From assembly GCA_017962275.1 (NCBI GenBank), contig JAGCVQ010000089.1:62-64061 (forward strand): a stretch of DNA of 64,000 bases. Reading direction: 5' to 3'. The stretch comes from Bacteroidales bacterium (lineage in GTDB: Bacteria; Bacteroidota; Bacteroidia; Bacteroidales; WCHB1-69). A model generated the notes under the pieces. That model was not told the DNA's origin. It saw nothing but the letters and a program-made list of their open reading frames with translations, and made no database searches. This document shows, piece by piece, positions 5,871-60,147 of this stretch. The first letter of the stretch is position 1, and every line of letters starts with the position of its first letter. Position numbers and translations under genes: made by a program.

Positions 5871-5898
5871 TTTAACCTTAAATCTTTAATCTTCTTAA
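5871..5898. repeat. Degenerate heptamer array, 4 units (TTWAAYC-like)
   Basis: The units are TTTAACC TTAAATC TTTAATC TTCTTAA. The stop of the 52-aa gene (5895-5897) lies in the last unit. Confidence 0.4.
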
Positions 5899-6053
5899 TT
5901 GTTTTCACTTTTGTTGTTCCACTCACCGTAATAAGGCCAGTAGGTGTCGTTGGGATTGTGCTGGTGATAACGTATGGCTCGGATAAAGATCCATATAAGA
6001 AGGCCAAGTGCCAATCCGCCGACAACAAGAAGTATGATTAATTTTGTAGTCAT
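5895..6053 (-). CDS. Small single-pass membrane protein (52 aa), first gene of the GLUG operon
   Basis: MTTKLIILLVVGGLALGLLIWIFIRAIRY contains one TM helix. ATG 6053 lies 24 nt downstream of the -7 box at 6078-6085. The track start at 6080 falls inside that promoter. The stop is 29 nt upstream of the GLUG gene ATG. Confidence 0.55.
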   Translation of the reverse strand: MTTKLIILLVVGGLALGLLIWIFIRAIRYHQHNPNDTYWPYYGEWNNKSENN

Positions 6054-6077
6054 AAAATAAGTAAATTTTTGCGGCTG

Positions 6078-6085
6078 CAAAAATA
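6078..6085 (-). promoter_or_regulatory. -7 box TATTTTTG (Bacteroidetes sigma-A type), GLUG operon
   Basis: The reverse complement reads GTAGTATTTTTGCAGCC. It lies 24 nt upstream of ATG 6053. Confidence 0.65.
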
Positions 6086-6231
6086 CTACATTTATATAAG
6101 ATGGGATTTTCTCTAATAGAAAATTCCACGAAAGGAAAAGGGAAATTCCATTAGAGACAAAGATTCTGATAAAAGGAAAAACAGTGAAAAAACGAGGTAT
6201 TTATACTTCTATAATATTTGTTTATAGCTAT

Positions 6232-7386
6232 TTATGCTATTCTGTAGCTAGAAGGAGTGTCCTTTCCCTGGGCTTTGAAGGCCTTGGCCATGGATGCTTG
6301 AGAGGAAAAACCACACTGCTCGGCGATGTCGGCCAGACGCTTGTCTGGATGTTGGTGGATAAGGCTGATGGCATGGCGCACACGGTGTAGACTAATCATG
6401 TCGTAGAACGACTGATAACCACAGCGACGGATTACTTCGGCAAGGTATTTGCTGTTGGTGCCCAACCGCGAGATGAGCACGTCGCTGGTGATGTGTGGCT
6501 CGGTGAAAATTTTCTCTTCTGTGAGCAGAAGTTCGAGACGGCGGCCCAGATCATCAAAGCGGCTATCAGAGACATGGTGGACTATGTCGGTATTTTCGAG
6601 TTTTTCTGCATTCGTTTGGCTTTCATTGTTTTCTGTGTTTTCTGAATCATTTAGGTATTCGGTAAAATCAGAATTTTCTGTACTAGCAACCTTTCTCCAG
6701 GGATTCAGCGTGAGGATGCAGAACCACACATTAGCCACAGTGAATAGGATATCTCTTCCAAATTTTACCCATACATCGTCTGCATAGAAATTGATGGCCA
6801 ATAATATAAGTACCAAAGTGGGTATCCAGCGGATAAGATTGGCGAGACGTACAGGGAAGTCGTCGCTGTCGGCATATTGGTCCTCGTTGGCTCGCCTTAC
6901 TGCATTCCTGATTCTCAGTGCCATACGTACGGAAAGGGAAAAGTATGCCATAAAGAGGAGACTCACAGCTCCTACGGTCCAAATGCGCCATCCTTCGGGC
7001 ATGGAAATGAGATTGATTGCCTGCAGGAACATTGGCAGTAGCACCACCACAGCGGGTATAAACAGCCAATAACCATTGAGTCGGTGTTTGTTTTCCGGAA
7101 AGAAGTACCCCTCGCACATGATGAGCATTTGGATGGAGAAGAAGAGTAGCGAGAAAGCGTTGACGTAAAGCAGCGCGTCGCTGTCGCCAATTTGCAGCAG
7201 GTAAGGCAGTTCAAAAATCTGCAGCAGGTAAATGATACCCACCGCCTTTTGGGCAGGAAACAGCTCGTAGAAGTGTTCCCTGTAGGCCTCCGGCTTGTAA
7301 AACCACTTCAGCAGCCACCCATAAAGGTGAGTGATGATGAAGGCCAGGTTGGCGGAGTAAAGTATCATGTATGCTGTGTCGGTCAT
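6232..7386 (-). CDS. Membrane-anchored AraC-family (HTH_18) transcriptional regulator
   Basis: The N-terminal ~220 aa are polytopic and hydrophobic. The C-terminus (LISRLGTNSKYLAEVIRRCGYQSFYDMISLHRVRHAISLI...AEQCGFSSQASMAKAFK) is a classic AraC double HTH. Confidence 0.8.
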   Translation of the reverse strand: MTDTAYMILYSANLAFIITHLYGWLLKWFYKPEAYREHFYELFPAQKAVGIIYLLQIFELPYLLQIGDSDALLYVNAFSLLFFSIQMLIMCEGYFFPENKHRLNGYWLFIPAVVVLLPMFLQAINLISMPEGWRIWTVGAVSLLFMAYFSLSVRMALRIRNAVRRANEDQYADSDDFPVRLANLIRWIPTLVLILLAINFYADDVWVKFGRDILFTVANVWFCILTLNPWRKVASTENSDFTEYLNDSENTENNESQTNAEKLENTDIVHHVSDSRFDDLGRRLELLLTEEKIFTEPHITSDVLISRLGTNSKYLAEVIRRCGYQSFYDMISLHRVRHAISLIHQHPDKRLADIAEQCGFSSQASMAKAFKAQGKDTPSSYRIA

Positions 7387-7405
7387 ATTTTGGTTTTCGG
7401 TTCGT

Positions 7406-7435
7406 TGTAGAGACGCGCCATGGCACGTCTCTACA
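7406..7435. repeat. REP type B variant between the lpxD stop and the AraC-like gene start
   Basis: The sequence is TGTAGAGACGCGCCATGGCACGTCTCTACA. It has the same outer arms as the other REPs with a GC-rich centre. Confidence 0.8.
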
Positions 7436-7437
7436 GT

Positions 7438-8400: not shown

Positions 8401-8409
8401 GCGGAAAGG

Positions 8410-9015: not shown

Positions 9016-9023
9016 CAAAGATA
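9016..9023 (-). promoter_or_regulatory. -7 box TATCTTTG, efp
   Basis: The reverse complement reads AAAAAAATTGTATCTTTGCCGCC. It lies 36 nt upstream of the ATG. Confidence 0.75.
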
Positions 9024-9037
9024 CAATTTTTTTCGTT

Positions 9038-9086
9038 TATGGTTTAAGGTTTATGGTTTAGGGTCATGGGTTAGTGGTTAAGGTCT
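9038..9086. repeat. Heptamer array, 7 units (TAWGGTT-like)
   Basis: The units are TATGGTT TAAGGTT TATGGTT TAGGGTC ATGGGTT AGTGGTT AAGGTCT. The array lies between the helicase-end REP and the efp promoter. Confidence 0.8.
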
Positions 9087-9087
9087 G

Positions 9088-10945: not shown

Positions 10946-10988
10946 TTTGGTAATGGTTGTTAGTGTTTGAAGGTTGTCGTATTAAATG

Positions 10989-11016
10989 TACATTGTACAT
11001 TGCTAATTGTACATTG
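10989..11016. repeat. Heptamer array, 4 units (TACATTG)
   Basis: The units are TACATTG TACATTG CTAATTG TACATTG. The nuclease stop (11003-11005) lies in unit 3. The array fills much of the nuclease-helicase spacer. Confidence 0.8.
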
Positions 11017-12355: not shown

Positions 12356-12383
12356 TGTTCTATACAAGTTTCAGGTTTCAAAT

Positions 12384-12411
12384 CACACGTCACACGTCTT
12401 ACGTCTCACTC
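12384..12411. repeat. Heptamer array, 4 units (CWCACGT-like)
   Basis: The units are CACACGT CACACGT CTTACGT CTCACTC. The gldH stop (12406-12408) lies in unit 4. Confidence 0.75.
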
Positions 12412-14548: not shown

Positions 14549-14576
14549 GGCCAACAGCCAATGGCCAACGGCCAAA
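14549..14576. repeat. Heptamer array, 4 units (GGCCAAC)
   Basis: The units are GGCCAAC AGCCAAT GGCCAAC GGCCAAA. The array lies between the secDF stop and the PSP1-gene promoter. Confidence 0.75.
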
Positions 14577-17969: not shown

Positions 17970-18266
17970 ATGAGCACGGAAATGATAGAGACCATCCGCG
18001 AGTATTTCAAGACCCAGCCGGTGTTGAAGGCTTGGATCTTCGGTTCGTATGCGCGTGGGGAGGAAACGGAGGACAGTGACGTGGACATTTTGGTGGTATA
18101 TGATGACAGCAAGCCGGTTGGATTGATGAAAATAGCCAACATGTACGTCAATTTGAAAAAACTCCTCCATAGGGAAGTTGATCTCGTTGAAGAGGGTACG
18201 CTTTTGCCATTTGCGGTTGAAAGTGCAAATCGTGATAAAAAACTGATCTATGAGAGAGCCTGTTAG
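17970..18266 (+). CDS. mntA: Minimal nucleotidyltransferase antitoxin (MntA-like)
   Basis: FGSYARGEETEDSDVDILVVYDD matches the GS-x10-DxD NTase motif. ATG 17970 lies 21 nt after the -7 box at 17941-17948. The 3' end overlaps the next gene by 17 nt. Confidence 0.85.
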   Translation: MSTEMIETIREYFKTQPVLKAWIFGSYARGEETEDSDVDILVVYDDSKPVGLMKIANMYVNLKKLLHREVDLVEEGTLLPFAVESANRDKKLIYERAC

Positions 18267-18603
18267 AGACAAAGAACGACTTCATCACATCTATGATGCC
18301 ATTAGTAGGATTCAAGGCAGAATTCCAACGTTAAATCTGGAAAGTTTACTTCAGGATGTATTAATCTATTATGGTGTCGTAAAAAACATTGAAATCATCG
18401 GAGAGGCCGTTTATAAACTCTCCAAGGAATTCAAGGAGGAGCATACTATGACCGCATGGGAGGATATTGAAGGTATGCGGCACGTGCTTGTGCATGACTA
18501 TTACAACATACAACCGGGGCGTGTGCTCCATGTTATAGAGAACGACCTCCCTCCTCTCAAAGCCCAAATTGAACAATATCTGTCCGAAATGGACGAACAA
18601 TAG
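18250..18603 (+). CDS. hepT: HEPN/DUF86 RNase toxin (HepT-like)
   Basis: It contains KNIEIIGEAVYKL and the Rx4HxY motif (MRHVLVHDYY). At 117 aa it is translationally coupled to the upstream NTase gene. Confidence 0.85.
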   Translation: MREPVRDKERLHHIYDAISRIQGRIPTLNLESLLQDVLIYYGVVKNIEIIGEAVYKLSKEFKEEHTMTAWEDIEGMRHVLVHDYYNIQPGRVLHVIENDLPPLKAQIEQYLSEMDEQ

Positions 18604-18736: not shown

Positions 18737-18766
18737 TGTAGAGACGCAAAATTTTGCGTCTCTACA
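18737..18766. repeat. REP type A, perfect 30-nt palindrome
   Basis: The sequence is TGTAGAGACGCAAAATTTTGCGTCTCTACA. It lies about 100 nt upstream of rayT. Confidence 0.9.
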
Positions 18767-19589: not shown

Positions 19590-19619
19590 TGTAGAGACGC
19601 ATAATTATGCGTCTCTACA
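19590..19619. repeat. REP type A, perfect palindrome with a variant centre
   Basis: The sequence is TGTAGAGACGCATAATTATGCGTCTCTACA. It lies downstream of rayT. It is preceded by a ~38-nt flank (ATTGCCATCYGCGG.GAAA...CCCACGT) that is shared with the 18737 copy. Confidence 0.9.
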
Positions 19620-19997: not shown

Positions 19998-22900
19998 ATG
20001 AAAAAAACGAAACACTGTTTTAGCCTTCTCATTATGATGATGGGCATCATGGGACTGTTCGCGCAAGAAGCGAATAACCTTTATCCAAAAGTCAAACGTC
20101 TCGAAGGACAAGGTAATGGAGGCAATTGGCTGGAAATCACCGAACAAACACGAGACAACATCATGTCTGGCGCACCCTGGAAAGTGCAGCAAGTGGAATA
20201 TGAACATGGTGCGTCTCCAGTGGTGGTTCGGGTAACAAATCCCTCTGAACTAAAGCCTTACGAATACTATTTAAGTTTAAATGATTATGACAACTTTTGG
20301 AAACTTAAATGGTATGATTCAACTGGTACGCAACTCGGTGAGTATATGTCGCAATATACTATCGAAGAAGGGAAAGAGGAAATTGTTGAAGGACATGGCA
20401 TTGCCATAACCATGAAGAACCATCCGTTTTCCATCCATGACAAAAATTTGGCGTTTCATGTTAGCACACACGGTGGAAATACATATCAAAACTATACACA
20501 TTACGCACAACCAGATCTAATCGGATCACAAGTGATATATCATGGTGATGTTCAGTGGTTGGATGGGTTGAAAGATGCCGAAACTTCCACTCCGGACAAC
20601 TGGATTCGTGCAGGACATTACAAATCAACACATTATTGGGTATGTTACTCTGGCCAACCGAGTATGGCTGAATGTGACTACTCGAAGTGGCGCACCGAAG
20701 ATTTCTTCAATCTCTATAACACGACAACTACTTGGGGAGGGACAAATAGCACAAGAGGATACATGGACTACTACGGCCAGTATGAGCATGTGGCGCAGGG
20801 TTCATGGGCACCCTATATGCTGAGTTCTCCATACGACGGAGGTCCTAAAGCGCAATTTCTTACCAAAGACGTGATATTTGGGAACAACATGCCCTCCCCC
20901 GCCTATTACGATTTCCGTTTTCTTGAATCGGTACCCAACAGGTCAAGGTATAACCAAACATTGACAAATCTTTATTCTGTAGATATAATATTCACCCCAG
21001 ACACCTCTCTATGGACTCGTGCACTCGTCTTGGAATCCGGTTCCGGAACTGTCGAATCGAACTATAAAGTCATTCAGCATTTTAATGGACAAACTTATCA
21101 AAATATCCGACATGAACCCAAGGCCTGCCCTTCGGTCGACAAAAACGGCAATCCCGACAACAGTGGGACATACGGATTTGGTTGGTTTCCTGGATATGCC
21201 ATCAATGTGGAGACTGGCGAACGTCTCAACATTATGTTCGCCGAGAACTCCGAAGACGAATACAACCATGGTAACGACATGATTTTCAACCCTACAAATG
21301 TATATGCCTTCAGAAAAAACAATGAGGACAACTACATATTAGACGATGCCGGCAACCCTATCCCCATGACCCAAGAAGAATACAACGCGTTGTACTCCAG
21401 CTCTTTATGTGACCATGAAATCTTGGGCGAACCTTTGTACGGTGGCAGGCATTATGTTTATATTTGCGGAAGCTCCGGCAACACGTGCAATGTTGCTCAG
21501 CAACGTAACTACAATAACGATGGCTATACAACAACCGTTCAAGGAGTTAGCCACGGTGGAGTTTTTACCGGCTCAGATGGGGTGTCTTATCCGTATTACG
21601 AATGTGGAGTTTATGATGAGGGGAAATGGTTGAAGGAAAAATTCAATACCCTATACGAGACCGACTATGACAGGAACTCTCGCAAGGCTAAAAAGATGCA
21701 GGTGTTCAACAATGTAATGTGGACAGGTATCCCGATGCCGAAACAGGGGCTGGAAACAGAATGGTTGGCAAACGAGGCCACTGTCAGCATCCGAGTATCA
21801 AGACCATTCATGAAATACACATCTGCAGTGGGCACTGGACCTGATCATCCTGTTAACAACAACGCGCCCCTGTTCTCTTTTACCACCAATGATTTATATG
21901 TGGCACAAAGCCACAACCTCTTCGACTTATCTAATATCATAGTCAGTTGTGACAATCGAATTGATGTCAATAATATAGACGCACCAGTGTCGCCTCACAG
22001 TGGTGCGTGGTTCTATGATGAAGAAACTCACAATGCTGACTATGTTGTACCGAAAGGGGCTGACAAACGACCGTTATTTAATTATTCATTCTGGATGGGC
22101 GGCAAAGATGGACAAAACAACTTGCATGTTTTTGCAGAAAGATTCAGACAACAAGGCTATGAAACTTGGCCTGGACCATTATCGACCATAGACGCTTCCA
22201 TTGATGAGGAAACATTGCGAAAATGGGACCGCACTTTCAAGATAACACGAAAGGAGGTGCTGGAGTTCATGGCTTGCCGTCAAAATCCCGAATACACTGT
22301 TCCGCAGCATATCCTTGAATGGCCCGCACATGGCGATACCACTAAGGGCCAAGCCTGGTTACTTGCCCCCTTTATTGACATCGACGGTGACAACCATTAT
22401 GATCCCACACAAGGTGACTATCCTGACTTTCCAGGTGACATGGCACAATTTGTTATCTTCAACGATAATTATGCACAACACGGAGAGAGTCAAGGGGCAC
22501 CTATGGGGGTTGAGGTTCATGTGATGGTGTATGCTTTTGATGCGCCGGAAGATTCTATCATGAATAATACGCTCTTTATTAAATACAAGTTATTCAACCG
22601 TTCACAAAACGAATACCACCAGACATATATCGGCTTATGGAATGACTGGGATTTAGGTTATGCTTACGATGATTATGTGGGCTGTGATGTTATGAAGAAT
22701 ACAGCTTATTGTTACAACGGGTCTGAAATTGATGGAACTGGCCAGTATTGGGCGTACGATTCCTTATGGCCTGTGCAGACTCTCACGCTACTCTCAGGTC
22801 CGCTAATGCCCGCCGACGGACAAGACAACCCTGCTTATACCAGTAGTTCAGATTGTTCAACGTTTATGAACAATGGACTCAATGAATATGGCATAAACGG

Positions 22901-25900
22901 CACCGATGGTTTCGGGGACGGTATTGTGGATAACGAGCGCTATGGCTTGACTGGATTTGTTTATCACGCCAATGACTATTCAGTGACCAGTGATCCGCAA
23001 TTTGCAGCGGAATATTACAACTTGATGCGTGGTGTTTGGAAAGACGGATCGCATGTAAGATATGGCGGTAACGGTCATACCTCCAACGGTGGTAATGGCC
23101 CGGAGTGCAACTTCATGTTTCCCGCCCTCACAGATAACTGTAATTTAGGCACTCATGGTGTTGACCCTAACTCAAGCCAATATGGAACTGACGGATGGAC
23201 AGAAGCCAACGTGGGTAACGAACCCTCCGACCGTCGTGGCCTTGCTTCCGTGGGTCCTTTCAACCTTGAGGCAGGAGGTGTGCAGGAGTTGGAACTCTGT
23301 TTGGTGACTATTCCGCACAGTTATGCAGTGACCCCAAATGGTATAACACTTGACAGCCTTTACCGAATCAACCCGCAATACCACAGCCAACAACTCGTCA
23401 CCCCAATAGTGAATAATGTGTATGATACTATCTGCGAAGGTGACAGCATCAACTTTTTTGGGACTATATACCGTGAGGCCGGATCGTTCCCCCATTTAGT
23501 ACCCAATTCATCACACACAGACGAAATTGCAGACACGATTCACTATCTGCATCTTACTGTTACCCCAACCTATACGTTTCATGAAGTGTCAGCCTGCGAT
23601 AGCTTGGTTTGGAACGATTCAACCTATACATCCTCAATGGAATACATACAGTCATTTACTACTGAAAACGGATGTGAGTTCCAGGTAATACAACGTCTAA
23701 CGGTAACTAACACGCATAATGTGGAATACGCCTCCTTGATATGCGATGATTATTACTGGCACGGTCATCCGTATCGTGAACCAGGAACATACACATATGA
23801 GTACGTCACTGCGAACGGGTGCCAAGGAACGGACACGCTGCACCTCGAGCGTGATACCACCATAGTGAACGATACTGTATTTGGATATTACTATTATAAT
23901 TCAAACGGAACAACCATATCTATCAAAGGGCAGAAATATTTATATCAATACATAATAGCCCCGGATAAATATGCACAATGGGCGGACTCCATGTTGACAA
24001 CATTTGAGTGGATTGATAGTACATATATATCTTTGGCCTACGATTCCTCTACTAACATTGCATCGTTCAGTTATATCGAAGTGTATGATTACAGAAATTT
24101 GCCTGGAGATAATTCTATCTGGGAGGACTTCTATTTGGACAGAACTTATAAAGATAGTACCTATTACGATGTTTTTGATACTTTAACAGGCCTGTCATCA
24201 ATCGGCTGCGACTCCACTGTGGTTTGGAATACGAGAATTATGTTCAAAGACATTCAATACCTTTATAACGAAGAATGTGGAAATTATATTTGGCAAGGAG
24301 ACAGCCTTTTCATTAGTGGTACAACATCTACAGGGACGACAATAGTTGGATTTGCTTCCGGAGACTCATTAACAGAGTCTGGTACTTATTATCAGAATTT
24401 AACAAATGTAAGTGGTTCCGATTCCACTGTAACCCGATATCTTATCATACATCCCACCGTATTCGATGAAATCACCTATGTCGGTTGTGAAAACCACACA
24501 TTCAACGACATTTCATACACCGAGTCAGGCGTTTACACTTTTAATTATGACACTACATTAACGATTACTCGGAATTTGTTTTGGAATAATAATCAATATC
24601 AGTGGGGTTACTGGAATAGTTTAGGTTTGTTCTGTGCGAATAGGCCTAAAGGTTGGAGTAATCGTTATTCTTCCTATGTTGATGGTGAATACGTTCACTA
24701 TTATTATGACGCAAATGGCGTTGTTCATTATCTCAATAGTCCTGATCAGGTTGTGCAATATATGGATACCGTCAAGGCTTGCAAGTTGCTGACACTTGAC
24801 CTAACTATCAATCACTCCGTCACAAATACTTTTGAGGTTACCGCCTGCGACTCCTACACCTGGAACGACAGCACCTACACCACCTCCGGTGAGTATGTCC
24901 AGACCTTCACTTCCGCCAACGGTTGTGACTCCACCGTCACTCTGCAACTAACCATCAACGAGTCCAAACACACTGATACCACAGCTGAAAGCTGTGGCTC
25001 CTATACGTGGAACGAGACCACCTACACCTCCTCTGGCGAGTACATCCAGAACTTCACGGCGGCTAACGGGTGCGACTCCACTGTCACCCTGCAACTGACC
25101 ATCCTGCCGCTGCCGACCCCGAACATCACGGGCGTCACTACGGTGTGTGAAGGACAGACCGCCACGCTGAACGCTACGGGCGGTGTGAGCTACCTGTGGG
25201 AAGACGGCACCACGACGAACACCTACCCTGCTACCGTGAGCGGCCTCTATACCGTTACGGTTACGAACGCGGAGGGTTGCTCCGCCACGGCTTCCACCAC
25301 GGTTACGGTGAACCCGCTACCGGAAGTGGCCATCACGGGCAACACCGCCATCTGCCCCGGCGGCAGCACAGTGCTAACCGCCACGGGCGCGGACAGCTAC
25401 CAATGGAGCAACGGCAGCACCAATCCTTCCATCCCGGTGAATATGTTCGGTCAATACAGCGTTATCGGCACGAGCTCGGCTGGATGCTTCAGCACCGCCT
25501 CGGTTACCGTTTTAGTGTCGCAACCGCCGGTTATCACCATCAGCGGCAACACGGACATCTGTGCGGGCGAGAGCACCACTCTCACGGCCAACGGCGGTGT
25601 CAGCTATATGTGGAGCAACGGCAGCACCGCCGACACGTTAGTAGCCATCACTGCGGGCAACTGGCAGGTAATCGGATACAACGCAGACGGTTGCAGCAAT
25701 ATGGCCTCCGTCACGGTGAACGTCTGGCAGCCCGCTTCATCCGACCTCTACATCACGGCGTTCGACAGCTGCTATATGTGGTTCGGGACACCGCGCTGCG
25801 AGTCCGGTGACTATACCCACACATTGCAGACCATCCACGGTTGCGACTCCGTGATTATCCTGCACCTCACCCTGGAGGATGCCATCACAACGGAGTTCAG

Positions 25901-30692: not shown

Positions 30693-30756
30693 GGTTACAT
30701 GGTTACATGGTTACACGGTTAGATGGTTACATGGTTACATGGTTAGATGGTGAAAT
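30693..30756. repeat. Octamer array, 8 units (GGTTACAT)
   Basis: It starts at the base after the ettA TAG. The units run GGTTACAT x2, GGTTACAC, GGTTAGAT, GGTTACAT x2, GGTTAGAT, GGTGAAAT. Confidence 0.9.
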
Positions 30757-30781: not shown

Positions 30782-30814
30782 ATAATTATCAATTATCCAT
30801 TATCAATTATCCAT
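30782..30814. repeat. Heptamer array, 4 to 5 units (TATCMAT)
   Basis: ATAAT TATCAAT TATCCAT TATCAAT TATCCAT lies just upstream of the -7 box at 30827. Confidence 0.8.
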
Positions 30815-30826
30815 TCAAAAAATGTG

Positions 30827-30834
30827 TATCTTTG
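30827..30834 (+). promoter_or_regulatory. -7 box TATCTTTG, lipoprotein-tyrS unit
   Basis: The context is AAAAAATGTGTATCTTTGCCGC. It lies 23 nt upstream of the ATG. Confidence 0.75.
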
Positions 30835-31255: not shown

Positions 31256-31290
31256 AATAACCTATAACCCATAACCAATAACCATTAAGG
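31256..31290. repeat. Heptamer array, 5 units (NATAACC)
   Basis: The units are AATAACC TATAACC CATAACC AATAACC ATTAAGG. The array ends 3 nt before the tyrS ATG. Confidence 0.8.
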
Positions 31291-32586: not shown

Positions 32587-32616
32587 TGTAGAGACGCAAT
32601 ATTTTGCGTCTCTACA
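32587..32616. repeat. REP type A (one arm mismatch)
   Basis: The sequence is TGTAGAGACGCAATATTTTGCGTCTCTACA. It begins 7 nt after the tyrS stop. Confidence 0.85.
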
Positions 32617-32622
32617 ACCCCT

Positions 32623-32654
32623 TAACCCTCTAACCCTCTAACCCTCTAACCTCA
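32623..32654. repeat. Octamer array, 4 units (TAACCCTC)
   Basis: TAACCCTC x3 plus TAACCTCA lies between the REP at 32587 and the nfeD ATG at 32659. Confidence 0.85.
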
Positions 32655-40244: not shown

Positions 40245-40258
40245 CATTTTTTTGCCAT

Positions 40259-40307
40259 TGGCTGTTGGCTATTAGCTATTGGCTGTTAGCTAAACCATAA
40301 ACCCTAA
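40259..40307. repeat. Heptamer array, 7 units (TTRGCTR, then AACCMTA)
   Basis: The units are TTGGCTG TTGGCTA TTAGCTA TTGGCTG TTAGCTA AACCATA AACCCTA. Confidence 0.75.
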
Positions 40308-42992: not shown

Positions 42993-43000
42993 TATTTTTG
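42993..43000 (+). promoter_or_regulatory. -7 box TATTTTTG, cstA
   Basis: The context is AAAAAAATTGTATTTTTGCCGCC. A 78-nt leader, made mostly of the 9-unit heptamer array, precedes the ATG. Confidence 0.75.
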
Positions 43001-43013: not shown

Positions 43014-43076
43014 AGGCAAGAGGCAAGAGGCAAAAGGCATAAGTCAAAACTCAAAAGTCATAAATCATAAGTCAAA
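43014..43076. repeat. Heptamer array, 9 units (AGKCAWR), inside the cstA 5' leader
   Basis: The units are AGGCAAG x2, AGGCAAA, AGGCATA, AGTCAAA, ACTCAAA, AGTCATA, AATCATA, AGTCAAA. The array lies between the -7 box (42993-43000) and ATG 43079. Confidence 0.9.
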
Positions 43077-43078
43077 AT

Positions 43079-44509: not shown

Positions 44510-44519
44510 CCTATAGCTC

Positions 44520-44568
44520 CCACGTCTCACGTCCCACTTCCCACGTCTCACGTCCCACGTCTTACATC
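44520..44568. repeat. Heptamer array, 7 units (YCACGTC)
   Basis: The units are CCACGTC TCACGTC CCACTTC CCACGTC TCACGTC CCACGTC TTACATC. The M1-peptidase stop (44562-44564) lies in the last unit. Confidence 0.85.
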
Positions 44569-47204: not shown

Positions 47205-47270
47205 TTTCAGCAAGGTTTCAGCAAGAAACCAGCAAGGAGACAGCAAGGGAACAGAAAGGGGACAGCAAGA
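47205..47270. repeat. 11-mer array, 6 units (nnnCAGCAAGr)
   Basis: The units are TTTCAGCAAGG TTTCAGCAAGA AACCAGCAAGG AGACAGCAAGG GAACAGAAAGG GGACAGCAAGA. The array is preceded by the inverted CTTGCTG. Confidence 0.8.
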
Positions 47271-47280
47271 AAATTACAGT

Positions 47281-47316
47281 TTAATCCTTCATTTAATCCT
47301 TCATTTAATCCTTCAT
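47281..47316. repeat. 12-mer array, 3 units (TTAATCCTTCAT)
   Basis: The three copies are exact. On the minus strand each unit reads ATGAAGGATTAA (M-K-D-stop). The array begins 4 nt after the TolC stop. Confidence 0.9.
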
Positions 47317-47319
47317 TTT

Positions 47320-48700: not shown

Positions 48701-48783
48701 GGCCCCACACTGCGCTCCTTCGTCGCTTGTGTGGGGTTATTAGCACTCCGTGCGTTTTGCCTCTCCGAGGCTGCTTAAGGAAT
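48701..48783 (-). repeat. Structured intercistronic element, copy A (RND-TolC junction)
   Basis: The sequence is GGCCCCACAC...GTGTGGGGTT-ATTAGCACTCCGTGC-GTTTT-GCCTCTCCGAGGC-TGCTTAAGGAAT. It forms three hairpins and is nearly identical to copy B outside the loops. Confidence 0.75.
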
Positions 48784-48813: not shown

Positions 48814-48862
48814 TTCACTACTAACTGCTAATTACTAATTACAAATTACAAATTACTAATTG
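48814..48862. repeat. Heptamer array, 7 units (CTAAYTR)
   Basis: The units are TTCACTA CTAACTG CTAATTA CTAATTA CAAATTA CAAATTA CTAATTG. The RND stop (48856-48858) lies in the last unit. Confidence 0.85.
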
Positions 48863-51990: not shown

Positions 51991-52070
51991 GGCCCCACAC
52001 TGCGGCTATCGCCTTGTGTGGGGTTATTAGCACTCCGTGCGTTTTGCCTCTTCGAGGCAGCTTAAGGAAT
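51991..52070 (-). repeat. Structured intercistronic element, copy B (MFP-RND junction)
   Basis: It has the same stems as copy A, with different loop sequences in hairpins 1 and 3. Confidence 0.75.
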
Positions 52071-52071
52071 T

Positions 52072-52106
52072 ATTCTTCATTATGCATTCTTAATTCTTAA
52101 TTCTGA
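52072..52106. repeat. Heptamer array, 5 units (ATTCTTA-like), spanning the MFP stop and its last 8 codons
   Basis: The units are ATTCTTC ATTATGC ATTCTTA ATTCTTA ATTCTGA. The stretch encodes ...ELRIKNA*. Confidence 0.7.
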
Positions 52107-53105
52107 ATTTACGTATAGTTTGTCCATCCCGCTGGTGATGACCGTGTCGCCGGGGTGGAGGCCGGAGGATACGAGGACGCCGTTGGACATGAAGGCGGAG
52201 GAGGTGATGAGGCGGTGCTGGGCGCGGCCGTTCTCCACCACCCAGACGGAAAGGCCCTCGGGACGGGTCTGCACGCACTTGGCCGGGATGACAAATCCTT
52301 GGTCGTCAGGCTGTTCGAGCTGCACCTTGCACACCATGCCGGGCAGCAGGGAACGGTCTTGGTTGGGGAAGGCGATCTTGACCTCGTAGCTGTGCGACAC
52401 GCGGGAGGCGTTGACGCTGCGGTCGGTTATGCGGCCGGTGAGAATGCGGTTGTCGAGCGCGGCCACACAGACAGAGGCGTTGTCACCAATATTCACGGTG
52501 CTGATTTCGCTCTCAGGGACCGAGAAGGAGACGGACACGCTGCCCATATCGAGGATGGTGACGGCTGGTTCGCCCGGCAGCAACGATGCGCCCGCCTTGG
52601 CGTTGCAGCTGCCCACCACGCCCGCGACGGGAGCTCGTAAGGTGCAGTCATCCAGCTGTTTCTTGGCAATCTGCTCCATCGAACGGGCTTTCTCCAACGT
52701 AGTTTCCATCTCCACCCACTTCACTTCGGCCAGACTTCCCTGGTCATACACTTTCTTCAGTCTTTTATAAGCATCCTCCGCCTGCTCCAACGAAGCTTTG
52801 GCGGAGTTGTAGGCGTTCTGTGCATTGCTGCTGTTCACGGTGGCGAGGATTTGTCCTGCCCGCACGCGGTCGCCCTCGTGCACATACACACGCTCCACGC
52901 GCCCGCCCATGGGGAAACTCGCCGCCACCGACAGATTCTCTTCCACCTCGCCCACGTAGGTGCGCGTCATGCCGCCGGCCACAGTATCGACCACCATCAC
53001 CTCGACGGTGACGGCCGCTTGCTCCTGCTTCGGAGCCTCATGACGGCAGCCCGCGACCAACAGACCGAGCAGAACGGCAAGGATGACGAATTTACAGTCT
53101 CTCAT
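52080..53105 (-). CDS. RND efflux periplasmic adaptor (membrane fusion protein)
   Basis: The lipobox is LLVAGC. The layout runs from a barrel-sandwich hybrid domain through a coiled-coil hairpin to a beta-barrel. 341 aa. Confidence 0.88.
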   Translation of the reverse strand: MRDCKFVILAVLLGLLVAGCRHEAPKQEQAAVTVEVMVVDTVAGGMTRTYVGEVEENLSVAASFPMGGRVERVYVHEGDRVRAGQILATVNSSNAQNAYNSAKASLEQAEDAYKRLKKVYDQGSLAEVKWVEMETTLEKARSMEQIAKKQLDDCTLRAPVAGVVGSCNAKAGASLLPGEPAVTILDMGSVSVSFSVPESEISTVNIGDNASVCVAALDNRILTGRITDRSVNASRVSHSYEVKIAFPNQDRSLLPGMVCKVQLEQPDDQGFVIPAKCVQTRPEGLSVWVVENGRAQHRLITSSAFMSNGVLVSSGLHPGDTVITSGMDKLYVNSELRIKNA

Positions 53106-53904: not shown

Positions 53905-54117
53905 ATGGAATTTATAGAAGAAAACAAAATTGAAATTGCAACTCCAGAAATCATCAAGTCACGCATCTTCAAAGTACGTAGAAGATGTGTCATCATTGAC
54001 AGCGACCTTGCTGAGATGTATGGGGTTGAAACAAAAAATTTGAAACGTACTGTTCGGATGAACATTGAACGTTTGCCTTGGCTTTTTTGGGGATTTATCG
54101 TTTATCGTTATATTTGA
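53905..54117 (+). pseudogene. Truncated ORF6N/KilA-N-like DNA-binding domain gene
   Basis: IKSRIFKVRRRCVIIDSDLAEMYGVETKNLKRTVRMNIERLP matches the ORF6N N-terminal core. The frame then decays into WLFWGFIVYRYI* after about 70 aa, whereas full-length family members as I recall them are roughly 170-190 aa. The -7 box is at 53873-53880. Confidence 0.55.
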
Positions 54118-54185
54118 AAAATGAGGGACTTAAAAAAACAAAACCCCAAGGTTTGATTGCTCAGGGACCTCAGGGGATAACACGG

Positions 54186-54193
54186 CAAAAATA
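54186..54193 (-). promoter_or_regulatory. Orphan -7 box TATTTTTG, antisense to the ORF6N remnant
   Basis: The reverse complement reads AAAAAAAATGTATTTTTGCCGTG, the full extended consensus. The downstream minus-strand sequence ends in GGGGTTTTGTTTTTTT within about 50 nt. Confidence 0.5.
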
Positions 54194-54268
54194 CATTTTT
54201 TTTGCACACAACAATTATTATGAAATTTTATTTGTAATACATATCTATGTTTCTGAATTCTAAAGACT

Positions 54269-54958
54269 ATGAAATACGAAGAATATGAAAATGCTTTTTC
54301 TGCGGCTCGATTAAACAAATATTTGTATGCATGCGAGGGTAGCAAAGACAAAGCTCTCAAACTATATCGGTTAAACATTAAACTATGTCAGAAATTGTAT
54401 GGAGTGTTGAACGTTTTTGAAATAGTTCTAAGAAATGCAGTGCACGAGCACTATAAAAGATACTTTTCAAATCCAGATTGGATAAAGGCTCAATTATCAG
54501 AAGGCGGAATGTTGAGCTTGGCTCCTAAAAAAGACGAGGCGGCATTCATCATTCAGAACTTGCTTGACTCGGGGAAATACTCTCCTGACAGAGTTGTATC
54601 TTCTTTATCGTTTGGCTTTTGGACCCATCTGTTCACCAAACATCCATTTTCCAAAGGAGGCAAAAGCATTTTGAACATTTTTCCAAACAAGTCTAAACCA
54701 TTAGGGCAAAGGGTTATCTTCAATGAGCTGATGAGGATAAAAGCATTTAGGAACAGAATAGCGCACCATGAACCGATTTGTTTTGACCAAACAGGTTTTG
54801 TTGATACAGTTTACGCCCGAAGCAATTACATGCTGATTTTACGCTATTTGTTCTTCCTCGGCTATAAAGAAAGCCAGATTCTATACGGATTGGATGTTCA
54901 ACCCGATGCGATTTTCAACAAAATTGATTCAATTGCAAAAATGAACATTCATGAATAA
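54269..54958 (+). CDS. Abi_2 (AbiD/AbiF-like) HEPN-domain abortive-infection protein
   Basis: It contains FSAARLNKYL...ALKLYRLNIKLCQKLYGVLNVFEIVLRNAV and FRNRIAHHEP, an Rx4H HEPN motif. It lies in a low-GC islet. Confidence 0.75.
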   Translation: MKYEEYENAFSAARLNKYLYACEGSKDKALKLYRLNIKLCQKLYGVLNVFEIVLRNAVHEHYKRYFSNPDWIKAQLSEGGMLSLAPKKDEAAFIIQNLLDSGKYSPDRVVSSLSFGFWTHLFTKHPFSKGGKSILNIFPNKSKPLGQRVIFNELMRIKAFRNRIAHHEPICFDQTGFVDTVYARSNYMLILRYLFFLGYKESQILYGLDVQPDAIFNKIDSIAKMNIHE

Positions 54959-55010
54959 CAAGTCACTTCACATTCTGCATTGTAAAAGGGCGCAGCCCCA
55001 CGGCCACGCC

Positions 55011-55045
55011 CTAATTCCTAATTCCTAATTCTTCATTCTTAATTC
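55011..55045. repeat. Heptamer array, 5 units (CTAATTC)
   Basis: The units are CTAATTC x3, TTCATTC, TTAATTC. The dxr stop (55039-55041) lies in unit 5. A 12-nt core, CATTCTTAATTC, is shared with 52085-52096. Confidence 0.85.
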
Positions 55046-56300: not shown

Positions 56301-56382
56301 GTTGTTTTATATTACTACCCCGCCCTTCGGGCACCCCTTCTGAAACAGAAGGGGAATTGGGGTTGCTCGTAACTGCAAACCA

Positions 56383-56417
56383 CTAACTGCTAACTACTAA
56401 CTACTAACTGCTAACTA
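56383..56417. repeat. Heptamer array, 5 units (CTAACTR), abutting the adk stop
   Basis: The units are CTAACTG CTAACTA CTAACTA CTAACTG CTAACTA, followed by the adk stop (TTA, the reverse complement of TAA). A 12-nt core, ACTAACTGCTAA, is shared with 48820-48831. Confidence 0.9.
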
Positions 56418-57002: not shown

Positions 57003-57037
57003 CTCTAAACTCTAAACTCTAAACTCTTAACTCTCAA
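57003..57037. repeat. Heptamer array, 5 units (CTCTAAA)
   Basis: The units are CTCTAAA x3, CTCTTAA, CTCTCAA. The hpt stop (57027-57029) lies in unit 4. The array nearly fills the hpt-adk spacer. Confidence 0.9.
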
Positions 57038-57566
57038 CTTGATAAATGTCGGGGAGATTGCGGCCGTAGCCGTCGTAGTCAAGACCGCGGCCGACGACGA
57101 ACTTGTTGGGGATGCTGAACCCGACGTAGTGGACGGGCAGGTCGGCTTTGTAGGCTTCCGGCTTCATCGTCATGGTGGCGATGCGCACGTCCTTCGCGCC
57201 GGCATCCATCAGCATTTTGTGGAGATGCACGTAAGTGCGGCCGGTATCGACAATGTCCTCCAGAATGAGGATCCGCTTTCCGCGAATGTCCTCGTTGAGG
57301 CCGATGAGACTGTTGATGGTGCCGGTGGATTCGGTGCCGCTGTAGGAGGAGAGTTTCACGCAGGAGATCCGGCAGGGGAAGTCCAGCTGTTTCAGCAGAT
57401 CGACGGCGAAGACGATGGCCCCGTTGAGGGTGATTAACAGGATCGGGTCGTCGTACCGGTATTCCAGCATGATGTCCGCAGCCACCTTGGCGATGGCCTC
57501 GTCGATTTTATCGGCGGTGATGTACTTGACAAAAGTCTTGTCCAAAAGGGTCACTTTCTCGCTCAT
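57027..57566 (-). CDS. hpt: Hypoxanthine(-guanine) phosphoribosyltransferase
   Basis: The PRPP loop is ILILEDIVDTGRT. 179 aa. The -7 box is at 57588-57595. Confidence 0.9.
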   Translation of the reverse strand: MSEKVTLLDKTFVKYITADKIDEAIAKVAADIMLEYRYDDPILLITLNGAIVFAVDLLKQLDFPCRISCVKLSSYSGTESTGTINSLIGLNEDIRGKRILILEDIVDTGRTYVHLHKMLMDAGAKDVRIATMTMKPEAYKADLPVHYVGFSIPNKFVVGRGLDYDGYGRNLPDIYQVES

Positions 57567-57587: not shown

Positions 57588-57595
57588 CAAAAATA
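57588..57595 (-). promoter_or_regulatory. -7 box TATTTTTG, hpt-adk-dxr unit
   Basis: The reverse complement reads AAAAAATATTTATTTTTGCGC. It lies 21 nt upstream of the ATG. Confidence 0.7.
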
Positions 57596-57629
57596 AATAT
57601 TTTTTCTGTTAGTCGGTTGGTACTTTAAA

Positions 57630-57720
57630 GTTCCAAGTTCCAGGTTCCAAGTTCCAAGTTCCAGGTTCCAAGTTCCAAGTTCCAGGTTCCAAGTTCCAGG
57701 TTCCAGGTTCCAAGTTCAAG
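57630..57720. repeat. Heptamer array, 13 units (GTTCCAR)
   Basis: GTTCCAA and GTTCCAG alternate in a 21-nt super-period. The array lies between the trmH-family stop/REP and the hpt promoter. Confidence 0.95.
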
Positions 57721-57746
57721 GTGGCGTTGGGAACAGGTGATTAAGC

Positions 57747-57772
57747 AGGGACGTAAAATTTTGCGTCTCTAC
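57747..57772. repeat. Degenerate REP type A overlapping the trmH-family stop
   Basis: The sequence is AGGGACGTAAAATTTTGCGTCTCTAC. The TAG stop of the gene is the TAG of the REP arm. Confidence 0.65.
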
Positions 57773-58302
57773 CGAATGGCCAATTGTCGGATTGCCTCCC
57801 ACAGGGTGATGCCGGTGGCGACGGCCACGTTCAGCGAATGTTTCGTGCCGAACTGCGGGATCTCGACGGCCGCGTCGCACAAAGGCAGCAGCTCCTCCGA
57901 GATGCCGAACACCTCGTTGCCGACAAACAGCGCGACCTTTTCATATTGGGCGAAGTTGAAATCCTGAAGCATCACGGAACCGTCGGTCTGCTCCACTAAG
58001 ATAATAGCGTAACCTTCTGACTTTAACTCCGTTGCAAGCTCCGCCACATTCTCCTTGTACACCCATTCCACGCTTTCGGTCGCTCCGAGGGCGGTCTTGC
58101 TGATCTCCTTCTGCGGGGGCGTGGCGGTGATGCCGCACAGGTAGAGCCGCTCCACGTTGAAGGCGTCGCACGTCCGGAACGCCGACCCTACATTGTGCAT
58201 GCTGCGGATGTTGTCCAACACCAGCACGATGGGGCTTTTCCCCTGCTGCTTGAATTCCTCCGGGGTCACCCGCCCCAATTCCTCCATACTCAACTTTTTC
58301 AT
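57769..58302 (-). CDS. SpoU/TrmH-family RNA 2'-O-methyltransferase
   Basis: It contains LDNIRSMHNVGSAFRT, GNEVFGIS and IPQFGTKHSLNVAVATGI. The TAG stop lies inside a degenerate REP. Confidence 0.85.
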   Translation of the reverse strand: MKKLSMEELGRVTPEEFKQQGKSPIVLVLDNIRSMHNVGSAFRTCDAFNVERLYLCGITATPPQKEISKTALGATESVEWVYKENVAELATELKSEGYAIILVEQTDGSVMLQDFNFAQYEKVALFVGNEVFGISEELLPLCDAAVEIPQFGTKHSLNVAVATGITLWEAIRQLAIR

Positions 58303-58386
58303 ACTAGCATTATATTCTTCGTTATTTTACCTCCATTCCGCCCGACGATAGGAGGGCGGAACCTCCGACTTGCAAAGGCACGTAAT

Positions 58387-58416
58387 CGTAGAGACGTGGT
58401 GCACCGCGTTTCTACT
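58387..58416. repeat. REP type B (two arm mismatches) abutting the dnaB stop
   Basis: The sequence is CGTAGAGACGTGGTGCACCGCGTTTCTACT. It overlaps the dnaB TAG at 58415-58417. Confidence 0.75.
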
Positions 58417-59998
58417 AAAATGCAAAATCATCCTCGTATCCCTGCTGCGACGGGTCTCCGCTACCGCTGCCGCCGTCGTCGCCGTTGGCCGCACTGTCGT
58501 AGTATTGGGCCGAGAAGTTCTCGTTGGGGGTGATGCCCGCGCCGGGGGAGACGTAGCTGCCGCCCTCGCCGAACGAACCCTCGCTCACATCGCAGAACTT
58601 CGTGAACTGGCTCTGGAAGCGTACTTTCACGTTGCCGGTGCTGCCGTGACGGTTCTTCTCGAACATGATTTCCGCCATGCCGTCGCTCGGGGTGTTGTCC
58701 TCGAAAGTGTCCAAATGGTAGTATTCCGGGCGGTAGATGAAGAGCACCATGTCGGCGTCCTGCTCGATGGAACCGGACTCACGCAGGTCGGACAATTGCG
58801 GGCGTTTGGAGCCGCCGCGGGTCTCCACGGCACGACTCAACTGAGAAAGTGCGATGACGGGAATGTTCAGCTCCTTGGCCAACGCCTTGAGGGATCGGGA
58901 GATATAACTGATCTCCTGTTCGCGGTTGCCGCCGTGCTTCGAACTGTCGGTGCCGGCCTGCATCAGCTGCAGGTAGTCGATGATGACCATCTGGATGTCG
59001 TATTTGTGTTTCAGACGGCGGCACTTGGCGCGCAGGTCGAACACGGAAAGCGCCGGGGTATCGTCGATGATGAGGTTCGAGCTGTTCAGCTTGCTGACGT
59101 TTTCCCACAGCTTCGACCACTCCACATCCGAGAGCGTACCCTTCGAGATATGGTCGGAGGGGATGCCTGATTCAATGGAGAAGAGACGGTGAACCAGCTG
59201 GGTAGCAGACATTTCCAGCGAGAAAAAGGCAATAGGCTGATCGAAATCGATGGCGGCGTTGCGGGCCACGGAGAGCACGAAGGAGGTCTTACCCATACCG
59301 GGACGGGCGGCGAGGATCACGAGGTCGGACTTCTGCCAACCGCCGGTTTTCTCGTCGATGGCGCGGATGCCGCACGGCACACCCTGTAATTCGTCCTGCG
59401 ATTCACGGATTTCCGACAGCTCGCTGAGGGCGGTGCTTACCACATCGCCCAGCTCCTTGCTGTCGCGGTGCAGGTTGCTCTCCACGATGGAGAAGATTTT
59501 CGTCTCGGCGGCGTCAAGCAGCTCCAACACGTCCCGGCTCTCGTCGTAGGAGTCGGTGACAATGGTGTTGCACTGACGGATGAGCTCGCGCAGGATGAAT
59601 TTCTCCATCACAATGCGGGAGTGGTATTCCACGTTGGCGGCGGAATTCAGCCGGCTGGTCAGACCTGCCACGTAGGAGGCGCCTCCGCAGAGTTCCAGCT
59701 GCTTGTTCTTTTTCAGCTGGTTGGTGACCGTCAGCACATCGATGGGCTGCGAAGCGGAGAAAAGTTGTCGAATCGCGGTGAATATCTGTTGATTAGCTTC
59801 CACATAGAACATTTCGGGGCGCAGCATGGCGAGCACCTCGGTCACGGCGTTGTCGTCGATCATCAGGGCGCCGAGCACCGCCTCCTCGAACTCCACGGCC
59901 TGCGGGGTGAGCTTGCCGGTGGTGCCCAAAAGCGTGTCGATGCGGTTATATGACATTGTCCGAGAGGGACGGTTTGTTGTAATCGTTTCGTTATCCAT
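58415..59998 (-). CDS. dnaB: Replicative DNA helicase DnaB
   Basis: Walker A is ILAARPGMGKTSF. Other motifs are IIDYLQLM, ALSQLSRAVE and SGSIEQDADMV. It carries an acidic C-terminal tail of about 60 aa and no intein. Confidence 0.93.
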   Translation of the reverse strand: MDNETITTNRPSRTMSYNRIDTLLGTTGKLTPQAVEFEEAVLGALMIDDNAVTEVLAMLRPEMFYVEANQQIFTAIRQLFSASQPIDVLTVTNQLKKNKQLELCGGASYVAGLTSRLNSAANVEYHSRIVMEKFILRELIRQCNTIVTDSYDESRDVLELLDAAETKIFSIVESNLHRDSKELGDVVSTALSELSEIRESQDELQGVPCGIRAIDEKTGGWQKSDLVILAARPGMGKTSFVLSVARNAAIDFDQPIAFFSLEMSATQLVHRLFSIESGIPSDHISKGTLSDVEWSKLWENVSKLNSSNLIIDDTPALSVFDLRAKCRRLKHKYDIQMVIIDYLQLMQAGTDSSKHGGNREQEISYISRSLKALAKELNIPVIALSQLSRAVETRGGSKRPQLSDLRESGSIEQDADMVLFIYRPEYYHLDTFEDNTPSDGMAEIMFEKNRHGSTGNVKVRFQSQFTKFCDVSEGSFGEGGSYVSPGAGITPNENFSAQYYDSAANGDDGGSGSGDPSQQGYEDDFAF

Positions 59999-60072
59999 AT
60001 CTTACAAAGTTTGGTTCATTACTCGTTCGGGGTGGCAAATATCCGAAATTTTATGAGGGTTTCGCGGGCGAG

Positions 60073-60116
60073 TTATCAACATTTCATCACAAGCGGTTGT
60101 GAACAATTGTTGATAA
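60073..60116. promoter_or_regulatory. Three DnaA-box-like 9-mers upstream of dnaB
   Basis: They are TTATCAACA (60073-81), TGTGAACAA (60098-106, reverse complement TTGTTCACA) and TGTTGATAA (60108-16, reverse complement TTATCAACA). Each is one mismatch from TTWTNCACA. The outer two form a 9-bp inverted repeat. Confidence 0.3.
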
Positions 60117-60122
60117 TTCAAA

Positions 60123-60147
60123 ATGAAGAATGAAGAATGAAGAATGA
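60123..60147. repeat. Heptamer array, 3.5 units (ATGAAGA)
   Basis: ATGAAGA x3 plus ATGAGCG lies in the divergent dnaB/A2M spacer. Confidence 0.8.

Follow-up and report, generated by a model that had tools for sequence, protein, structure and literature searches.

The gene junctions of a 64-kb stretch of DNA from an uncultured rumen Bacteroidales bacterium (the whole stretch is referred to here as the window) carry short tandem arrays, mostly of 7-nt units and sometimes of 8-nt units, at a density of about 22 arrays per 64 kb, or roughly 1 per 3 kb. These arrays are a new and very dense case of a known class of repeat, and not a new kind of system. The evidence favors a length-dependent, sequence-independent mutational process combined with a purifying-selection filter. 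We consider it probable, with real room for doubt, that the arrays are long simple sequence repeats made in situ by slipped-strand mispairing, and that selection confines them to spacer joints and gene tails.

Arrays were called in the window with Tandem Repeats Finder (TRF). Between 5.8 and 60.2 kb, TRF returned 18 period-7 arrays, two period-8 arrays, one 11-mer array and one perfect 12-mer array, with copy numbers of 3.4 to 12.9 per array and lengths of 24-90 nt (most 24-60 nt). The period-7 arrays start at 5870, 9035, 10987, 12383, 14549, 30784, 31256, 40257, 43014, 43031, 44518, 48819, 52086, 55010, 56370, 57003, 57628 and 60122; those at 43014 and 43031 can be counted as one or as two. 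A preliminary reading of the same DNA, referred to below as the original prediction, had counted 17 heptamer and 2 octamer arrays, an 11-mer and a 12-mer, and TRF essentially agrees. The original prediction had also proposed a comparison with shuffled sequence, and 30 dinucleotide-preserving shuffles of the window gave no period-7 or period-8 array at a score of at least 40. As a background set we used 80 dxr-centered loci (1.36 Mb) from other genomes, mostly Bacteroidota, with Dxr identity to the window of no more than 59% among the matches listed. This set held 13 period-7 arrays, or about 0.6 per 64 kb, making the density in the window approximately 30-fold higher.

The bias toward units of 7 and 8 nt was as strong as had been claimed. 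In a set of 55 arrays from the window, the strain loci and the close-relative loci, loosely de-duplicated and with some orthologous copies left, the period was 7 in 39 arrays, 8 in 6 and 6 in 5; periods of 9, 11, 12, 33 and 45 nt occurred once each. The excess of perfect repeats over chance was restricted to units of 6-12 nt, and perfect repeats with units of 1-5 nt were at or below chance. Perfect arrays with at least 3 units had periods of 6, 7, 8 and 12 only. Most arrays were imperfect, and at least 3 perfect units were found in 4 of the 18 heptamer arrays. The units are AT-rich and diverse and have no G-tract basis. That each array has a unit of its own was mostly true; two pairs of units are identical, and pairs differing by at most 1 mismatch within the window (10, compared to 6.3 expected) were not above chance (P = 0.12). 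Families of related units across loci were considered and rejected, as the apparent excess was due to orthologous copies and the excess within the window was not significant. Because the units are private to their loci, a sequence-specific binding protein and spread of a mobile element are excluded, and the arrays are not copies of a mobile or protein-recognized sequence.

Genes were mapped from Pfam matches, codon-usage scoring and public gene calls on identical contigs projected onto the window. Coding sequence made up 91% of the window, with 5,702 intergenic bases; a giant minus-strand open reading frame (ORF) at 1-5823 and an A2M-like gene beginning at 60226 both run off the window. Arrays covered 13.7% of intergenic bases compared to 0.36% of coding bases. 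They were present at 20 of the 42 gene boundaries (20 of the 35 spacers of at least 33 nt), so their frequency, given in the original prediction as nearly every boundary, was overstated. Twelve of 20 arrays overlapped a stop codon or lay within 1 nt of one, compared to 5.8 expected (P = 4e-4) under a null, described as generous, that let arrays fall anywhere in the spacer and reach up to 14 nt into the gene. The arrays are thus closer to stop codons than chance would place them, as had been predicted.

In six minus-strand genes the stop codon lies within the array. The TGTACAT array (x4.3, 10987-11016) includes the stop of the DUF559 nuclease gene (11003-11005) and extends 11 nt into the coding sequence; other strains have an additional 54 nt at this site. 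The TCACACG array (x3.9, sense CGTGTGA, 12383-12409) includes the GldH stop, and the TACTAAT array (x6.1, 48819-48861) includes that of the RND pump (48856-48858). An ATTCTTA-type array at 52070-52109 includes the MFP stop (52080-52082) and supplies the final 9 or so codons of that gene. The CCTAATT array (x5.1, sense GAATTAG/GAATGAA, 55010-55045) includes the dxr stop and ends at a terminator-like hairpin with a T-run that follows immediately. The CTCTAAA array (x5.3, sense GTTNAGA, 57003-57039) runs from the last three hpt codons over the stop and occupies the 33-nt hpt-adk spacer.

Five further arrays abut a stop codon with a gap of 0-1 nt. On the minus strand, the CTTTAAT array (x3.4, sense AAGATTA, 5870-5893) has its edge 1 nt after the stop of a 52-amino acid (aa) ORF (5895-6053), and the TAACTAC array (x6.9, sense AGTTAGY, 56370-56417) abuts the adk stop. 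The TCCCACG array (x6.3, minus strand, 44518-44561), which has a perfect 21-nt higher-order period, occupies a 52-nt convergent spacer, directly at the M1 peptidase stop on one side and 8 nt away from the CstA stop on the other. A minus-strand block at 47219-47318 consists of an 11-mer (x5, 47219-47273) and the perfect 12-mer TTTAATCCTTCA (x3.2, 47280-47318), and the 12-mer has its edge 1 nt from the stop of the outer-membrane efflux gene (OEP). On the plus strand, the octamer GGTTACAT (x7.4, 30693-30751) begins at the first base after the EttA stop. A weak minus-strand 10-mer (x3, 6221-6250) overlaps the stop of an AraC-family gene (6232-6234). The statements of the original prediction on stop codons held overall; of the eight minus-strand genes for which it had placed the stop inside the array, six are those above, and in the other two, the 52-aa ORF and the M1 peptidase gene, the array abuts the stop. 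Its statement that arrays directly abut the adk and ettA stops was confirmed. The tyrS array, whose unit it had listed among those with a stop triplet, makes no contact with the tyrS stop, and a hairpin lies in between.

Arrays that do not touch a stop codon are also non-randomly placed. Most transcription units in the window are preceded by the strongly conserved promoter-like consensus AAAAAATTGTAtnTTTGCCGC, in which a TAnnTTTG box, the Bacteroidota -7 promoter element, follows an A-tract and TG; intergenic examples are found at 9023, 14538, 28987, 30827, 42993, 54193, 57595 and 60195. Four arrays end 10-12 nt upstream of such a box with its preceding A-tract. They are GTTTATG (x4.3 with a 14-nt higher-order period, minus strand, 9035-9064), 48 nt past the helicase stop and 11 nt upstream of the -7 box TATCTTTG of the EF-P promoter; GGCCAAC (x3.9, no stop triplets, minus strand, 14549-14575), 10 nt upstream of the -7 box of the PSP1 promoter; AATTATC (x4.6, plus strand, 30784-30815), 11 nt upstream of the -7 box TATCTTTG at 30827; and ATTGGCT (x5.1 with a 14-nt higher-order period, minus strand, 40257-40292), 12 nt upstream of the -7 box TACCTTTG. 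At the -33 position no conserved element can be made out, as array sequences unrelated to one another lie there.

Four arrays, all A/C-rich and G-poor, end 1-9 nt before the start codons of cstA, tyrS, nfeD and adk. On the plus strand, AGGCAAG (x3.7) followed by CAAAAGT (x6.7) at 43014-43077 lies in the 5' untranslated region (UTR) of cstA, downstream of the promoter at 42993 and ahead of the start codon (43079). AATAACC (x4.7, plus strand, 31256-31288) occupies the 43-nt spacer from the stop of a 122-aa ORF to the tyrS start, 5 nt from each, and the octamer CCCTCTAA (x4.2, plus strand, 32619-32651) follows the hairpin located past the tyrS stop, with its edge 7 nt before the nfeD start. The longest array, AAGTTCC (x12.9, minus strand, 57628-57717), has a 21-nt higher-order period (98% match) and no stop triplets and lies in the middle of the spoU-hpt spacer. 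The dnaB gene and the A2M-like gene (start at 60226) diverge from a spacer that holds perfect AATGAAG (x3.7, 60122-60147).

Several arrays are seeded in the last codons of a gene. The repeated unit starts within the last codons of the hpt, dxr, MFP and nuclease genes and, in two relatives (loci L084 and L115), of spoU, where the units are GTTAGAA and AATTAAG, respectively. In hpt, the conserved protein end is ...YQV, and the window continues with the units GTTGAGA, GTTAAGA, GTTTAGA and again GTTTAGA, which give the tail ES*. At the same spot, locus L085 has GTGATCA, GTGAATA, GTGATCA and GTGAACA, which give the tail ISE*. The duplicated 7-mer included the stop codon, which is why the stop lies in the array, and since units begin in the last codons, the C-terminal tails are encoded by the arrays and differ between species. 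The composition of the arrays fits this origin. Of 21 stop-abutting arrays, 18 had more G than C on the mRNA-sense strand even with stop triplets masked (P = 0.0015), and this bias was seen whichever DNA strand the gene is on. Genes that lack arrays are equally purine-rich and C-poor in their last 10 codons, and the bias matches the composition of these codons across all genes in the window. We attribute the sense-strand bias to seeding from gene ends. Avoidance of Rho utilization (rut) sites was considered as a cause of the depletion of C on the sense strand and was rejected, because the last 10 codons are composed alike in genes with and without arrays, which suffices to explain it.

Contigs of the same species were recovered by exact-protein look-ups from at least 10 samples. 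Contigs as long as 138-328 kb encode the same EF-P and Adk and a closely related DnaB. Most had identical arrays, and more diverged strains differed by whole units, with length differences of -56, -14, -7 and +7 nt. The GGAACYT array at 57628 has 13 units in the window compared to about 5 in contig L095 (-56 nt, or 8 units). The hpt array is shorter by 7 nt and the adk array by 14 nt in L096, and the gldH array is longer by 7 nt in L102 and L105. At the dxr site of L095, the GAATGAA variant has been amplified in place of GAATTAG, and the adk array is missing from this contig. Within the window, the higher-order periods of 14 and 21 nt match at 98-100% (TRF), which is consistent with multi-unit slippage events. 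Assembly artefact was ruled out as a source of the arrays by the recurrence of identical arrays in assemblies made independently for at least 10 samples and by lengths of 24-90 nt, which a single read can span. The comparison of copy number among strains that the original prediction had suggested returned whole-unit variation in arrays that are real.

Between species, the arrays turn over rapidly. Relatives with 82-88% DnaB identity to the window (loci L084-L087 and L115) have gene-end arrays of 7- and 8-nt units too, and in those at 87-88% the same spacers have different units, different periods or no array. Locus L085, for instance, has ACGATGAR x14 across the entire dnaB-spoU spacer, where the window has no array, and it has no array at the site of the GGAACYT x13 array of the window. 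The sole array to keep its unit between species is that of adk (AGTTAGY), found in L085 at 87% DnaB identity. Relatives at 69-75% DnaB identity (L108-L113, about 98 kb including overlapping loci) had no heptamer array. Their dnaB-spoU spacers are 2-35 nt, so the arrays look like recent insertions that inflate once-tight junctions. Dense arrays are thus restricted to one clade among these relatives. Elsewhere in the Bacteroidota, two to four intergenic heptamer arrays per 21 kb were found in three loci, from a Prevotellaceae metagenome-assembled genome (MAG; L059), a Paludibacteraceae MAG and a Larkinella genome (L049 and L041 being the other two loci). The trait is extreme in this clade and yet found elsewhere too, and the difference is one of degree.

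We infer from these data that slippage is the mechanism, that the events escape mismatch repair and that the arrays are neutral. An array would begin when a stretch of 7 or 8 nt is duplicated in tandem. From two or three copies onward, slippage would add or remove whole units, and after the units had diverged, gains and losses would come in blocks of 2-3 units (14 or 21 nt). Mismatch-repair efficiency drops for larger loops, which has been linked to the contrast between short and long units (PMC4060949); loops of 7-8 nt may exceed what MutS-type repair handles, in which case the events would persist and units of 1-4 nt would be held down. The lack of an excess of 1-5 nt repeats bears on such an escape indirectly. 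Since neither 7 nor 8 is a multiple of 3, events within genes would shift the frame and be purged by selection. In a genome as compact as this one (91% coding), arrays would survive only at a few unconstrained joints. One such joint would be the last codons and the stop codon, where the first copy would retain the stop and leave the protein unaltered. Others would be the position immediately ahead of the A-tract and -7 box of a promoter, and the 5' UTRs and inter-cistron spacers. The stop triplets and the purine-rich, C-poor sense strand of the stop-abutting arrays would be inherited from the gene-end seed and would not have been selected as a buffer.

Several observations weigh against this explanation. 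Although the arrays make up only about 14% of intergenic sequence, 12 of the 20 are in contact with a stop codon, and uniform birth does not predict such anchoring unless most of the remaining spacer is constrained. Retention of the adk unit (AGTTAGY) at 87% DnaB identity hints at either persistence or constraint. The clade boundary, with arrays at 82% DnaB identity and above and none at 75% and below, is beyond ordinary slippage, which is common to all bacteria, and something particular to the lineage must raise either the rate or the tolerance. The preference for 7 over 5, 6 or 9 nt is left without explanation; the only published idea that we found on the 7-nt step is the length of the DNA segment held by the polymerase (Mrazek 2007, as summarized in PMC4679880). 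The counts themselves rest on approximately 0.1-0.15 Mb of non-redundant sequence of the clade.

The frequent stop triplets raise the question of whether the arrays could have been selected as three-frame stop buffers that catch readthrough or frameshifted ribosomes at gene ends. Contact with a stop codon in 12 of 20 arrays would suit such a role, as would a stop density of 0.088 per nt on the sense strand compared to 0.046 in other intergenic DNA and the presence, in 10 of 19 arrays, of a stop in each sense frame. However, the antisense strand is almost equally rich in stops (0.067 per nt, 51 triplets compared to 67 in sense), and 7 of 19 arrays cover all three of its frames. Units that are AT-rich on both strands account for the excess relative to the rest of the intergenic DNA, and stops are already frequent in ordinary AT-rich spacer. 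The original prediction had reasoned that three or more units would place a stop in every frame, which on the sense strand is true of 10 of 19 arrays and of only 6 of the 11 stop-abutting arrays. It had also pointed out that arrays without any stop prevent a buffer from being the whole explanation, and such arrays do exist (GGAACYT x13, GTTGGCC and AATTATC). With stops at gene-end arrays being a by-product of duplicating a stop-containing unit, we judge a stop buffer to be very unlikely. A switch of flanking genes by changes in copy number (contingency loci, or phase variation) is hardly credible. Copy number is polymorphic between strains and some arrays lie near promoters or in 5' UTRs, but no array occupies the 5' part of a gene or the space between promoter elements. 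Their positions are 3' ends, the region upstream of a whole promoter, or UTRs, and their neighbors are housekeeping genes (adk, hpt, dxr, tyrS, efp) and not surface or restriction genes.

A role at the RNA level seems to us unlikely, though less so than a stop buffer. The arrays would serve either as spacers free of structure or as platforms with many sites for proteins that each occupy about 7 nt of single-stranded RNA. The binders could be cold-shock-domain or S1-type OB folds, and the effect could be translation initiation without Shine-Dalgarno pairing, coupling of cistrons, or stability of the mRNA 3' end. The A/C-rich, G-poor arrays 1-9 nt before the cstA, tyrS, nfeD and adk starts would fit, most arrays are predicted to be nearly unstructured, and the adk unit is kept between species; a similar role was proposed for TAACTGA repeats in PMC4679880, citing the binding of one heptamer per CspB protein. 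Against it, private units exclude a sequence-specific binder, four arrays are upstream of promoters, where transcription of the downstream gene may leave them out, orthologous spacers do not consistently hold an array, and copy number varies freely among strains. Selection on RNA structure was also considered and rejected: sense-strand folds showed no consistent bias, the arrays being neither more nor less structured than permuted-unit arrays, and many minimum free energies were 0 from composition alone. A somewhat better, still doubtful, alternative is that a lineage-specific enzyme or an altered replication or repair factor generates the 7-8 nt duplications, the step being its footprint, with selection filtering the sites. 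Suggested candidates are a variant polymerase, primase, exonuclease or flap-processing enzyme. Arrays in every sampled relative with at least 82% DnaB identity and none in about 98 kb (partly overlapping) at 69-75%, a density about 30 times that of other, mostly Bacteroidota, loci, and a narrow step length whatever the sequence all argue for such a factor. No candidate gene was identified, however, and a preference for heptamers in many unrelated phyla (Mrazek 2007, as summarized in PMC4679880) argues for a general property of replication; the few similar arrays in L059, L049 and L041 likewise make the difference one of degree. It is only a tentative suggestion that a rumen Bacteroidales clade at the genus or family level gained or altered a replication or repair activity that duplicates 7-8 nt at a very high rate, likely where replication meets the ends of transcription units. 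If this were true, comparison of array-rich with array-free sisters could reveal the factor and so explain the heptanucleotide preference of bacteria.

Other repeats and elements were noticed in and around the window. Four stretches of 30-33 nt with a 7-nt period lie within the giant ORF (at least 1,941 aa), in frame (e.g. TNNPSPITIQNCY) and within a repeated protein module, at 2361-2390, 2460-2489, 2562-2593 and 2671-2703 of the minus strand, beyond the range that the original prediction covered; heptamer arrays can therefore persist in coding sequence with the frame intact. A 147-nt tandem repeat (x2.5, 72% match), also in frame, was found at 26013-26378 inside a second giant ORF, of 2,650 aa (19998-27950). 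Public adk gene calls in one 90% identity cluster (P0137-P0151) range from 185 to 218 aa; the long forms have N-terminal extensions that appear to be upstream spacer called as coding (e.g. MTLDFSNVMSYVTHHTSYVIKLKPQTN...), and the one or two C-terminal residues vary (EAL, EAMQ, ETLY, EKLC). A palindrome, TGTAGAGACG-N8-10-CGTCTCTACA, with a CGTCTC/GAGACG motif in its stem, occurs six times, at 3611-3632 (within the giant ORF), 7410-7431, 18741-18762, 19594-19615, 32591-32612 and 58391-58412, the last five being intergenic. Copies often stand directly after a stop codon (tyrS, dnaB), and the palindrome looks like a repetitive extragenic palindrome (REP)-like or terminator hairpin family. A second hairpin, CCCCACAC...GTGTGGGGTTATTA, often accompanied by a CCCCGAAGGGG hairpin, is present in several spacers of the RND efflux operon and in relatives (48703-48754 and 51993-52041 of the window; 2359-2592 of L081; 12900-13000 and 13600-13790 of L085); in L081 it forms a tandem array of 46 nt x5 upstream of dnaB. 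Intrinsic terminators were considered and rejected, as terminator-like sites were no more numerous than in shuffles, and an Rfam 15 scan of the window gave no match at or above the gathering score. The window also holds an MNT/HepT-type toxin-antitoxin pair (NTP_transf_2 and HepT) at 17970-18603 and, between the efflux operon and dxr, an ORF6N and Abi_2 pair at 53905-54958. The Abi block is missing in L095, and L107, which has an identical TyrS, has an acyltransferase gene in place of the block at 17.7-28.9 kb.

These arrays matter for practical as well as mechanistic reasons. They alter predicted protein C-termini, mislead gene callers (as the adk calls of 185 to 218 aa illustrate) and inflate spacers, and they could act as strain markers for an abundant uncultured rumen group. 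The preference for 7 nt has been on record since 2007 (1990 for the cyanobacterial short tandemly repeated repetitive sequences, STRR), and its explanation is still speculative. With about one array per 3 kb, private units and a narrow phylogenetic onset, this clade is a clean natural case in which the question can be approached through comparative genomics of existing rumen MAGs.

We found no literature description of such arrays in rumen Bacteroidales. The original prediction knew of no described system that explains them, which was incorrect, since the class was already known from Mrazek, Guo and Shah (2007), as summarized in PMC4679880 and PMC4692102, and from MacGregor 2015 (PMC4679880). 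The latter described direct repeats of the heptamer TAACTGA in marine Beggiatoaceae, cyanobacteria and five Bacteroidetes; these arrays place a stop in every reading frame and in 13 cases run across the stop of the preceding gene, and other intergenic heptamer repeats were seen in Gramella and Aequorivita. The two cases share intergenic heptamers, three-frame stops in one orientation and overlap with stop codons, and TAACTGA arrays often lie a few nt upstream of starts. In contrast, the TAACTGA system has one unit that dominates the genome, with horizontal spread proposed, whereas here the units are private, anchoring is mainly at stop codons and not at start codons, and no TAACTGA tandem was found. 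The STRR and the GGGAATC/GGGGAYT repeats of Xanthomonas and Nostoc (PMC4692102), with 186 GGGAATC arrays reported in a Xanthomonas campestris genome, are likewise heptameric and intergenic, but they form a few G-rich families per genome with G-quadruplex potential, while the units here are AT-rich and diverse. The similarity among units, which was not above chance (P = 0.12), sets the window apart from all such single-family repeats (STRR, GGGAATC, TAACTGA).

The tandem repeats of Borgs (PMC9879509) resemble these arrays in that their units are unique to the locus, evolve fast and are genome-specific, and their arrays may start within ORF ends; intergenic units are mostly not multiples of three, and there is a purine or A bias on the coding strand. 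Borg arrays differ in being perfect, at least 50 nt long and composed of longer units (e.g. 18-21 nt), with about half of them in frame within genes. The arrays described here are mostly imperfect and mostly 24-60 nt long, and they are locked to 7-8 nt and kept out of coding sequence except at gene tails, with almost none inside genes. Phase-variable contingency loci offer no closer match, given the location of the arrays at 3' ends, upstream of promoters and in UTRs next to housekeeping genes. The closest likeness is to the long simple sequence repeats with 5-11 nt units of Mrazek and colleagues, which, as summarized in PMC4679880, PMC4692102 and PMC4060949, are heptanucleotide-dominated tandem arrays above chance, almost all in non-coding DNA, sporadic in phylogeny and without an excess of 1-4 nt units, and for which polymerase slippage was proposed. 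The arrays of the window show the same features, being tandem above chance, most often heptameric, largely confined to non-coding DNA and changed by whole units between strains. Only 18 bacterial species exceeded 4 satellites per Mb in a survey of prokaryotes that used criteria different from those here (PMC6749651). What separates the present case from the class is a far higher density, with about 22 arrays in 64 kb.

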